A stretch of DNA of 64,000 bases from Sphingomonas sp. (GTDB taxonomy: Bacteria; Pseudomonadota; Alphaproteobacteria; Sphingomonadales; Sphingomonadaceae): contig DASTWI010000020.1 of NCBI GenBank assembly GCA_035776635.1, positions 3,483 to 67,482 of the forward strand, written 5' to 3'. Both the position numbers and the translations under genes were made by a program. The notes beneath the pieces are model-generated. The model worked only from the letters and a program-made list of their open reading frames with translations. It did not search any database and was not told the DNA's origin. This document shows, piece by piece, positions 9,319 to 12,441 of this stretch (position 1 is its first letter; each line of letters opens with the position of its first letter).

Positions 9319-9495
9319 TGTCTCTCTCTCGTCAAAGGATGGGGTCGCGGAGGCCCCTAAGGGCAGGCCGTCGCGCGATCAAGCCGCGGCTCGTCCGCCG
9401 GTGAAGTGGAGAAAGTGGAGAGTGTCGCACGGTTTCGCCCGCTTCGCTGCGATCCTCGGGAAAGGAGAGAGATGCAATCGGGGACGAGACGATTG

Positions 9496-9510
9496 GAACA
9501 TAAAGCGAAC
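9496..9510. promoter_or_regulatory. Alphaproteobacterial LexA (SOS) box in the icd/psd divergent intergenic region
   Basis: Exact GAAC-N7-GAAC (GAACATAAAGCGAAC). Confidence 0.6.
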
Positions 9511-9597
9511 ATAGCGCAAAGCGGGTCTGTAGGAAAGCAATTTCGCCGTTTTGAGGCGCGTTGTGTTAGGCGGGCGACACAGCTACACCTCGCGCGC

Positions 9598-10429: not shown

Positions 10430-11221
10430 ATGAAACCGCCGATCCGCCGCCCGGTGCGCGGATTGCCGCTGCGCGCGGTCGCGCCCAATGCGGTTACCGC
10501 GCTCGCGCTTTGCTTCGGTCTCTCGGGAATCCGCTTCGCGATCGGCGGGGAGTGGGAGCGGGCGGTGCTGATGATCATGGTCGCCGGCGTGCTCGATGGG
10601 CTAGACGGGCGCGTCGCGCGGATGCTGCACGGGGCGAGCCGGTTCGGCGCCGAGCTCGATTCGCTCAGCGACGTGGTGTCGTTCGGCGTGTCGCCGGCAT
10701 TGGTCGTCTATCTCTGGTCGCTGATCGGCTTGCCCAAGGTCGGCTGGATCTGCGCGTTGATCCTCGCGGTGTTCTGCGCGCTGCGTCTCGCGCGGTTCAA
10801 CGCCAACATCGACGTTACCGAACAGCCGCATAAATCGGCCGGCTTTCTGACCGGCATTCCGGCGCCGGCGGGCGCGCTGCTCGCGATGCTGCCGATGTAC
10901 TGCTGGTTCTCGAGCGAGCTCGACATGTTCCGCTCGCCGTTGCTGGTCGCGCCCTGGGTCGCCTTCGTCGCGCTGATGATGGTGTCCAGCATCGCCACCT
11001 TCAGCTGGTCGTCGCTGCGGCTGCGCGCCAACATCCGCTTCGAGGCGCTGGCGGTGGTCGTGCTGTTCGGCGCCGCACTGCTCACCGCGCCCTGGCAGAC
11101 GCTGACGGTGATCTGCGTCGCGTATCTGGCGACGATCCCGTTCAGCATCCGCGCCTATGGCCGGATCAGGCGGCTTCGCGTCGCCGCCCTGCGAGACGAG
11201 TTGCCGGGCGATCACCCCTGA
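10430..11221 (+). CDS. pssA: CDP-diacylglycerol--serine O-phosphatidyltransferase
   Basis: CDP-alcohol phosphotransferase motif DGLDGRVAR...FGAELDSLSD, RLARFN, FLTGIPAP; lies next to psd. Confidence 0.93.
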   Translation: MKPPIRRPVRGLPLRAVAPNAVTALALCFGLSGIRFAIGGEWERAVLMIMVAGVLDGLDGRVARMLHGASRFGAELDSLSDVVSFGVSPALVVYLWSLIGLPKVGWICALILAVFCALRLARFNANIDVTEQPHKSAGFLTGIPAPAGALLAMLPMYCWFSSELDMFRSPLLVAPWVAFVALMMVSSIATFSWSSLRLRANIRFEALAVVVLFGAALLTAPWQTLTVICVAYLATIPFSIRAYGRIRRLRVAALRDELPGDHP

Positions 11222-11381
11222 CGATCCGATGCCGCCGGGCCGGCGCCAGTCGGCGCGCGGGTGCCGGCCGTCCGGTCAGCGCCTCGGCCATGCGCGGCCA
11301 GGCCGGTATCAGCGTGCCCGCGGCCACCGTGACGATCAGCGCCAGCGCGCCTGCGAAAACCAGAGCCGATACAATCGCCAT
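11166..11381 (-). CDS. Small (71 aa) predicted single-pass membrane protein, LexA-regulated candidate
   Basis: AGGAGG ribosome-binding site 5 nt before ATG; hydrophobic N-terminus AIVSALVFAGALALIVTVAAGTLI; basic tail; its own promoter and LexA boxes upstream. Confidence 0.65.
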   Translation of the reverse strand: MAIVSALVFAGALALIVTVAAGTLIPAWPRMAEALTGRPAPARRLAPARRHRIVRGDRPATRLAGRRREAA

Positions 11382-11437
11382 GACCACCTCCTGACATCGG
11401 GCGGAACCGTCCAGGGCAATCCCCGCGCCCCGCGATC

Positions 11438-11481
11438 GTTCCTCGTTCGTTCCGTGTTTGCTCTATGTTCCATCGATGTTC
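11438..11481 (-). promoter_or_regulatory. LexA box array overlapping a sigma70-type promoter
   Basis: GTTC-N7-GTTC at 11438-11452 and 11467-11481; 11-bp phased GTTC/GTTT/GTTC/GTTC at 11445, 11456, 11467, 11478; minus-strand TTGACA at 11486-11491. Confidence 0.75.
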
Positions 11482-11494
11482 CGCTTGTCAACGC

Positions 11495-11521
11495 TTGATT
11501 TGCGTGGCGCGCTCGGCTAAG
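11495..11521 (+). promoter_or_regulatory. Putative rpsB-tsf promoter
   Basis: TTGATT (11495-11500) and GCTAAG (11516-11521) resemble the alphaproteobacterial housekeeping promoter consensus. Confidence 0.5.
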
Positions 11522-11542
11522 CGCGCCGCCTCAACCCCGCAT

Positions 11543-11610
11543 GGGAAGCGCACATACCGGTGCTCTGGGTCCGCCCAGGGTCACTGCTTCCCAGAGGTCT
11601 AACCGGAAAG
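11543..11610 (+). promoter_or_regulatory. Structured rpsB 5' leader (possible S2 autoregulatory element)
   Basis: ACCGG/CCGG and CTCTGGG/CCCAGAG pairings immediately before rpsB. S2 leader autoregulation is established in other Proteobacteria. Confidence 0.5.
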
Positions 11611-11619
11611 GAAACGATT

Positions 11620-12441
11620 ATGGCGGCTCCCGTCGTCACCATGCAGCAGTTGCTCGAGACCGGCGCGCACTTCGGTCACCAGACGCACCGCTGGAACCCC
11701 AAGATGAAGCCGTACATCTTCGGCGATCGCAACGGCGTCCACATCATCGACCTGTCGCAGACGGTGCCGCTGTTCGCGCGCGCGCTGGAGTTCGTGAACT
11801 CGACCGTCGCCGCGGGCGGCAAGGTGCTGTTCGTCGGCACCAAGCGCCAGGCGCAGGAGCCGATCGCCGAGGCCGCGCGCAAGGCCGGCCAGCATTTCGT
11901 CAACCACCGCTGGCTCGGCGGCATGCTGACCAACTGGAAGACGATCTCGCAGTCGATCAAGCGGCTGAAGACGCTCGAGGAGCGGCTGTCGGGCGACACC
12001 GCCGGCCTCACCAAGAAGGAAGTGCTGCAGCTGACCCGCGAGCGCGACAAGCTCGAGCTGAGCCTCGGCGGTATCCGCGACATGGGCGGCATTCCCGACG
12101 TGATGTTCGTGATCGACGCCAACAAGGAAGAGCTGGCGATCAAGGAAGCCAATACGCTGGGCATTCCGGTCGTCGCGGTCCTCGATACCAACGTCTCGCC
12201 CGACGGCATCGCCTTCCCGGTGCCGGCGAACGACGACGCGAGCCGTGCGATCCGCCTCTATTGCGAGGCGATCTCGATCGCTGCGACGCGCGGCGGCCAG
12301 GACGCTGCCGTGATGAGCGGGCAGGACTTCGGCGCGATGGCCGAGCCGCCGGTCGAGGCCGCGGTCGCCGAGCCCGAGCAGCCGGCGGCTGCGACCGAGC
12401 CGGAGACCGCCGAAGAGGGCGAGCGCCAGATCGACGCCTGA
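11620..12441 (+). CDS. rpsB: 30S ribosomal protein S2
   Basis: [30 protein letters not shown] and PANDDA motifs. Confidence 0.98.

Follow-up and report, generated by a model that had tools for sequence, protein, structure and literature searches.

A fast-evolving family of small membrane proteins under predicted LexA control beside pssA in the Sphingomonadaceae

To our knowledge, SOS-linked control of cell division in the Alphaproteobacteria has been worked out only in Caulobacter, through the membrane proteins SidA and DidA, and we know of no SOS division effector described from the Sphingomonadaceae, a large family with plant-associated members, degraders of pollutants and bacteria of clinical environments. 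Here we describe a small gene that lies between pssA and rpsB in a 64,000-nucleotide (nt) stretch of Sphingomonas sp. DNA (hereafter the window; all coordinates are positions in it), behind two copies of the sequence GTTC-N7-GTTC. The original prediction for this locus had proposed an SOS-induced membrane protein analogous to SidA. Judged from comparative sequence evidence, the small open reading frame is a conserved protein-coding gene of a fast-evolving family, and its control by LexA is very likely. Taken as a whole, we consider it probable that the gene encodes a 71-residue, single-pass inner-membrane protein that is repressed by LexA, is induced by DNA damage and most likely acts as a transient block on division or envelope growth.

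SidA of Caulobacter crescentus is a 29-residue, LexA-repressed inner-membrane protein that inhibits division by acting on FtsW (PMC4211646). Like the small protein described here, it is alphaproteobacterial, has a GTTC-N7-GTTC operator, is small with a single membrane helix, and is confined to one lineage. By the description of SidA, the small protein is set apart by its length (71-87 residues, 2.5-fold that of SidA) and by its long, basic, predicted cytoplasmic tail. No sequence relationship between the two is apparent from a profile of the small protein family, which finds nothing credible in 300 alphaproteobacterial genomes outside the Sphingomonadaceae. We know of no counterpart in SidA to the obligate overlap with pssA that is described below. 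DidA, also of Caulobacter crescentus, is a membrane protein of 71 residues with a single helix; it acts through FtsN to block division and is activated by DriD independently of LexA and RecA (PMC4211646). It shares its size class and single-helix layout with the small protein and is damage-induced, as the small protein would be. Induction of the DidA type, without LexA or RecA, does not describe a gene that carries a conserved LexA operator (no search for DriD sites was made), and no similarity between the two proteins was detected.

YneA of Bacillus, SosA of Staphylococcus and ChiZ of Mycobacterium are SOS-induced, membrane-anchored division inhibitors (PMC13396833, PMC6851548). All three are LexA-repressed, have an N-terminal anchor of similar length to that of the small protein, and are removed by proteolysis, which resets the checkpoint. 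Their C-terminal part lies outside the cell. The N-in/C-out topology of YneA and SosA differs from that of the small protein, whose tail is predicted by the positive-inside rule to be cytoplasmic and in which no LysM or other known domain was found. TisB and DinQ of E. coli are SOS-induced type I toxins of approximately 27-29 residues, almost wholly hydrophobic, each with a dedicated antisense small RNA. They resemble the small protein in their small size, their hydrophobic character and inner-membrane location, their control by LexA (predicted for the small protein) and the antisense transcription nearby. However, toxins of this kind are shorter than approximately 40 residues, nearly all hydrophobic and paired with an antisense small RNA, whereas the small protein family has a median length of 78 residues and a basic tail of approximately 50 residues, and only the pssA mRNA is antisense to it. 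We place the small protein outside all of the named families, as a new family in the already known class of small membrane effectors under LexA control.

The main features of the locus, including the elements of the small gene's promoter, are as follows.

10430..11221, plus strand: pssA, CDP-diacylglycerol--serine O-phosphatidyltransferase, the convergent partner of the small gene (name taken from the orthologous locus as annotated in RefSeq)
11166..11221, both strands: 56-nt dual-coding convergent overlap of the small open reading frame with the 3' end of pssA, which ends at 11221
11381..11166, minus strand: coding sequence of the small membrane protein, 71 residues plus stop (ATG at 11381, TGA at 11168-11166); homologues at the same site in approximately 140 loci
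11392..11387, minus strand: Shine-Dalgarno sequence AGGAGG, 5 nt ahead of the ATG; relatives have GGAG-type sites before the start
11438..11452, no strand assigned: distal predicted LexA operator, GTTCCTCGTTCGTTC on the plus strand, 29 nt from the proximal box and at approximately +3 to +17 of the predicted transcript
11445..11470, no strand assigned: overlapping one-mismatch sites GTTC-N7-GTTT and GTTT-N7-GTTC, which compose an 11-bp half-site chain; specific to this genome
11461..11468, minus strand: -10-like element ACATAGAG, inferred from the box-anchored comparison; relatives have (A)CATAnAG right after the operator
11467..11481, no strand assigned: proximal predicted LexA operator, GTTCCATCGATGTTC on the plus strand and GAAC-N7-GAAC on the strand of the gene
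11491..11486, minus strand: -35 hexamer TTGACA of the small gene's promoter, read from the sequence
11495..11500, plus strand: putative rpsB -35 hexamer TTGATT, 3 bp from the -35 of the small gene; TTGATT is kept in several relatives

Direct reading of the window thus bears out the architecture originally described: both exact GTTC-N7-GTTC boxes are present, the half-sites follow one another at 11-bp intervals (GTTC at 11445, GTTT at 11456, GTTC at 11467 and GTTC at 11478), the minus-strand TTGACA stands 3 bp from the hexamer on the rpsB side, and AGGAGG precedes a 71-residue frame that overlaps the end of pssA by 56 nt. The proximal operator fills the spacer of the promoter and extends into the -10 element. 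A GTG start at 11387, which would give 73 residues, was rejected because it overlaps the Shine-Dalgarno sequence. The GGAAC half-sites also prompted consideration of an EcfG-type promoter (GGAAC-N16-17-CGTT), which was rejected since no CGTT occurs at the right spacing here or in the relatives inspected.

Because this genome is 67% GC, a 71-codon frame alone means little, and it is conservation that decides whether the frame is a gene. When the window frame was searched by tblastn against 60 related genomes, we observed weak matches only (E 3e-5 to 0.02). The top-ranking match lay within the pssA-rpsB spacer in at least 15 genomes of the same genus, and each of these spacers carries a minus-strand frame of 70-85 residues with the same layout, namely a hydrophobic helix from residue 2, the pattern P-x-(W/L)-x-R-I...L..G, a basic tail, and the ending ...R(A/E)AA-stop. 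A 16-member profile finds copies in other genera, with pssA present in 27 of the 30 matched loci, and in a second set of loci the profile matches lie at the pssA site in 41 of 41 cases. Within the Sphingomonadaceae, a wider profile has matches in 46 of 103 genera (96 of 251 genomes). Homologues of 52-87 residues (median 78) occupy the same site in approximately 140 loci of this family, including those of Sphingomonas and Sphingopyxis, and the frame, length, start with its Shine-Dalgarno site and hydropathy are all kept at approximately 35% identity. Homologues with a preserved frame, as supposed by the original prediction, are therefore present across the sphingomonads.

An exhaustive profile search of 1.84 billion proteins returned 695 cluster representatives at E ≤ 1e-3, and the best 150 of these 695 matches are mostly 70-80 residues long and aligned end to end. 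The ratio of nonsynonymous to synonymous substitution rates (dN/dS) is 0.15-0.57 in close pairs, on which pairs only the conclusion of purifying selection is drawn. Family-wide, the GC fractions at the three codon positions are 0.63/0.49/0.77. A search of related loci that started from one protein of another genus gave no matches. We also inspected 25 genomes of other genera that were negative with the profile. In 17 of them pssA adjoins rpsB, and all 17 have a minus-strand frame of 70-98 residues with an N-terminal helix and usually an -AA end; 15 of the 17 have an exact box. Since the family evolves so fast, sequence searches undercount it.

The predicted operator is conserved along with the gene. 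An exact box is present in 42 of 43 loci of a first set (the exception has a one-mismatch GAAC-N7-GATC in the same place), in all 56 loci evaluated from named Sphingomonas species (58 records, less two that end too early upstream), and in 41 of 41 further loci that include Sphingopyxis, so that the expected co-conservation of frame and upstream GTTC-N7-GTTC is strongly supported. When upstream regions are aligned on the box, the strand of the gene typically reads TTGAC(A/G)-N4-GAAC-N7-GAAC-ATAnAG; conservation covers the hexamer, the two half-sites and the ATA, and the N7 spacer and flanks are free to vary. TTGAC lies 9-12 nt ahead of the start of the box in 37 of 43 loci. The distance from the box to the start of the frame ranges from 40 to 192 nt, and the box keeps its place beside the -35 hexamer. 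The proposal of a phased array of boxes holds in part: the proximal box, next to the -35, is the only universal one, whereas a second exact box, 23-30 nt away, occurs in many Sphingomonas loci without being universal, and the 11-bp phasing is peculiar to this genome.

GTTC-N7-GTTC is the Caulobacter LexA consensus (PMC4211646). The window contains six exact boxes where 1.65 ± 1.22 are expected, a number that none of 100 shuffles reached, and the whole genome contains 103. The following genes of this genome carry boxes of the same form, which occur in both orientations relative to the gene.

lexA: GTTCCGTGTCTGTTC
recA: GTTCCCCTCTTGTTC
uvrA: GTTCTAGCTTTGTTC
imuA: GTTCACTATTTGTTC
radA, copy on C17: GTTCCCCTCTCGTTC
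radA, copy on C54: GTTCGTGTATTGTTC
dinG/yoaA-like helicase: GTTCCCCAATCGTTC
dinB: GTTCTTATCCTGTTC

In a genome-wide scan, the small gene was the only small membrane-helix frame preceded by a Shine-Dalgarno sequence behind an exact intergenic LexA box. A chance origin of the box is ruled against because nearly all orthologous promoters have it and the pssA loci of other alphaproteobacterial families have none (0 of 29, from -100 to +500 of the pssA stop). This comparative evidence strongly suggests that LexA controls the small gene by occluding its promoter, a conclusion that we hold with high confidence. As observations in their own right, the genome has two radA/sms paralogues (C17:25495-26865 and C54 from approximately 6390), each with its own exact LexA box, and a second protein with a LexA-like S24 peptidase domain is encoded at C18:114540-115218 behind another exact box. 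In a published transcriptome of Sphingopyxis granuli TFA, lexA, recA, radA, dinG and two imuAB-dnaE2 operons are induced 4-12-fold during anoxic nitrate respiration (PMC6472365).

The small gene had been expected to be conserved beside rpsB. The frame and its box are indeed conserved, but the conserved partner is pssA, with which the gene overlaps tail to tail, and not rpsB. The distance from the box to rpsB varies from approximately 100 to approximately 640 nt. In eight genomes that have the rpsB locus without pssA, none of the rpsB upstream regions has a box. Seven genomes have pssA at a distance from rpsB, and in all seven a box is found 110-290 nt past the pssA stop; the overlapping helix frame was recovered in four of these seven by a crude filter. 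Given that box and frame follow pssA, and that the outgroups have neither box nor homologue, the unit is an invention of the Sphingomonadaceae tied to pssA, and its adjacency to rpsB is incidental. Regulation of rpsB by the boxes was considered and rejected, as their spacing is fixed to the -35 of the small gene and not to rpsB, and the box goes with pssA when the two are separated. Separately, the rpsB 5' leader (11538-11617, plus strand) gives a weak match to the Rfam rpsB model RF01815 (23.6 bits against a gathering score of 40, E 0.08), which is below threshold and consistent with an S2 autoregulatory leader. SOS control of psd-pssA was also considered, prompted by a box at 9496-9510 upstream of psd, and was rejected; that box is part of a copy of an inserted repeat, and of the 11 relatives with a readable psd upstream region, 10 have no box there.

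The overlap of the small gene with pssA was found in 41 of 41 loci examined and spans 17-206 nt. The stop codon of the small gene falls in the same phase in 40 of the 41, across the PssA (I/V)-(R/K) codons; in the window, ...REAA-stop lies antisense to PssA I-R-R-L-R. On the PssA side, the stop is provided by an AGG codon in 26 loci and by AAG in 14, and no locus uses CGN there, whereas arginine codons genome-wide are approximately 94% CGN and 4.9% AGG. The PssA proteins of other families lack the motif Y-A-R-(I/V)-(R/K)-R-(L/Q)-R. Conservation of this motif probably reflects a joint constraint with the R-A-A-A-stop end of the small protein, and the driving strand could be either one. The locus offers a clean example of dual coding: the stop of the opposite gene keeps a rare AGG or AAG codon in place within pssA.

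An AlphaFold2 model of the window protein, made with the family alignment, has one helix (residues 2-36, predicted local distance difference test (pLDDT) >89) and a disordered tail, with a mean pLDDT of 82.6. The N-terminal hydrophobic helix and arginine-rich tail noted at the outset are shared by the homologues. For the main Sphingomonas subfamily, AlphaFold2 gives helices at residues 2-36, 45-64 and 69-77, and the second of these spans an invariant PL..L..AERRIAVRRWA stretch that is present in most Sphingomonas and degenerate in the window copy (ARRHRIVRGD). Among 130 unique sequences, the mean number of lysines and arginines (K/R) is 0.04 ahead of the helix and 1.9 over the 15 residues that follow it. 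Because they are nearly absent before the helix and several follow directly after it, the positive-inside rule predicts a cytoplasmic tail. The tail carries 9.6 K/R against 3.1 aspartate and glutamate, for a net charge of approximately +6.5, and 120 of the 130 sequences (92%) end in -AA. A C-terminal -AA is the key determinant of ssrA-type recognition by ClpXP, so it is plausible that this end is a built-in degron.

Searches of Pfam, NCBIfam, PADLOC and PDB sequences gave no match better than E ~0.07, phage genomes contained no copies, and the exact window protein sequence was in no collection searched. GenBank, RefSeq and UniProt label members of the family "hypothetical protein", and full-text literature searches found no description of it, in agreement with its original designation as uncharacterised. 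The only plasmid match is a chromosomal-type pssA locus on an 853-kb plasmid record. That record, from Sphingomonas parapaucimobilis (NZ_CP155750.1), carries an icd-psd-pssA-small gene-rpsB-tsf block on a replicon labeled "plasmid" which, given these core genes, looks more like a second chromosome or chromid; in it, RefSeq over-extends the small gene to 159 residues.

We propose the following sequence of events. LexA would bind the proximal operator, over the spacer and -10 element, and the second operator just after the predicted transcription start, and would thereby block RNA polymerase. Upon DNA damage, RecA-stimulated cleavage of LexA would release the promoter along with those of lexA, recA, uvrA, imuA, radA and dinB. 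The protein would then insert into the membrane with almost no N-terminal overhang, exposing its strongly basic and mostly disordered tail to the cytoplasm, and would most likely halt cell division or envelope growth transiently, much as SidA and DidA block division in Caulobacter. Once LexA returns, the -AA end, which resembles an ssrA-type signal for ClpXP or FtsH, may lead to rapid removal of the protein. For the function alone, a transient brake on division or envelope growth is suggested by analogy with SidA, DidA, YneA and SosA, and we advance it tentatively, as an assignment with slightly less than an even chance of being correct.

Several observations weigh against this proposal. A consensus promoter scan of 10900-11900 called no sigma-70 site, and for that reason the -10 element is inferred from conservation alone. 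In distant pairs dN/dS is near 1, a value that is uninformative given saturated synonymous sites and a strong GC bias at third codon positions. The codon bias of the window frame is weak, with GC by codon position of 0.80/0.66/0.74 compared to approximately 0.66/0.46/0.91 for pssA, rpsB and tsf; the third-position values of these neighbors are 0.90-0.93, as opposed to 0.74. The -AA end lies antisense to the basic PssA motif and could be a by-product of the overlap rather than a degron. Finally, the small protein exceeds SidA in size, and it is predicted to have the reverse of the YneA and SosA topology.

The atypical codon-position GC of the window frame, together with the location of the predicted boxes 140-180 nt upstream of the rpsB ATG, would suit an explanation in which the frame is untranslated or functionless and the boxes act elsewhere, for instance on rpsB-tsf or on an antisense RNA that is non-coding. 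We regard this as very improbable, given that the frame, start, Shine-Dalgarno sequence, length and hydropathy have been kept in approximately 140 loci at such low identity, that close pairs are under purifying selection, that the box is fixed relative to the -35 of the frame while its distance to rpsB varies several-fold, and that the box stays with pssA when rpsB is elsewhere, leaving the rpsB upstream region without one. A membrane toxin of the TisB/DinQ type, induced in the SOS response and causing depolarization with growth arrest or persistence, would likewise have a LexA operator, a small size and a very hydrophobic N-terminal helix, and the constitutive convergent transcript across the 3' end of the small gene could make the pssA mRNA 3' end a cis-antisense limiter. 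Yet such toxins are almost wholly hydrophobic peptides of approximately 30 residues, whereas this family, with its median of 78, has a conserved basic tail of approximately 50 residues. It is also single-copy, chromosomal and fixed in site, with no phage match and with a plasmid occurrence only as part of its own pssA locus on the 853-kb record, and no dedicated antisense RNA gene is evident. A toxin of this type is therefore, in our estimation, quite unlikely.

The conserved overlap raises another explanation, in which the target of the unit would be its convergent partner pssA instead of the divisome. Either the protein would bind PssA in the membrane and modulate it, or antisense SOS transcription into pssA (and psd) would lower the synthesis of phosphatidylserine and phosphatidylethanolamine, leading to slower membrane growth. 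Small membrane proteins often regulate adjacent larger membrane proteins, the tail-to-tail arrangement is universal among the loci examined and survives loss of rpsB adjacency, and the stop codon is fixed in phase within pssA. Furthermore, an intrinsic terminator scan of both strands over 10900-11900 predicted none, so that read-through into pssA is plausible. On the other hand, once two genes overlap, the arrangement is not easily reversed and may persist without function, and the protein sequence itself is under selection, so that antisense RNA alone is insufficient as an explanation. The psd-pssA operon is also not generally SOS-controlled, since the psd-upstream box belongs to an inserted repeat and is missing from nearly all of the relatives compared. 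On this evidence we consider an action on pssA to be unlikely, if less so than a toxin. In its most developed form, the overlap itself would be functional: release of the gene from LexA would shut down phosphatidylserine and phosphatidylethanolamine synthesis, through binding of PssA or through transcript collision or pairing with the pssA mRNA, so that the SOS response arrests growth and division by way of lipid supply, with the stop codon and the -AA degron co-selected. This version we view as doubtful, with a low probability of being correct; were the link to pssA functional, DNA-damage signaling would be tied to phospholipid synthesis. We accordingly retain the brake on division or envelope growth as the favored reading. 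For annotators, the family supplies a name and the right start codon for a gene that is at present overlooked or given too long a frame, and the conservation of the gene across the Sphingomonadaceae makes the question of an SOS effector testable in tractable strains such as Sphingomonas melonis and Sphingopyxis granuli.

The repeat that supplies the box upstream of psd is an intergenic element of 125-150 nt with sharp ends, present in 16-17 copies in this genome. The window copy lies at 9395-9540, and other copies are located, for example, at C10:72780, C12:16703, C22:21917, C35:61917 and C47:33365. The exact form of the repeat was not found in 40 other Sphingomonas genomes, and it has no Rfam match. 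The repeat takes the form CTTTCCTACA-N6-ATGTTCTGCTAATGTTCC-N5-8-GCTCTTTGACA-variable-TGACyTTTGTGACCTTT(G/C)G, in which ATGTTCTGCTAATGTTCC is a perfect LexA-type box. Approximately half of the copies are oriented toward a convergent gene's 3' end. This repeat looks like a lineage-specific element resembling a miniature inverted-repeat transposable element, or a small-RNA family, that is spreading LexA operators. The box at 9496-9510 comes from a diverged copy within the icd-psd spacer, where one relative also carries a related insert.

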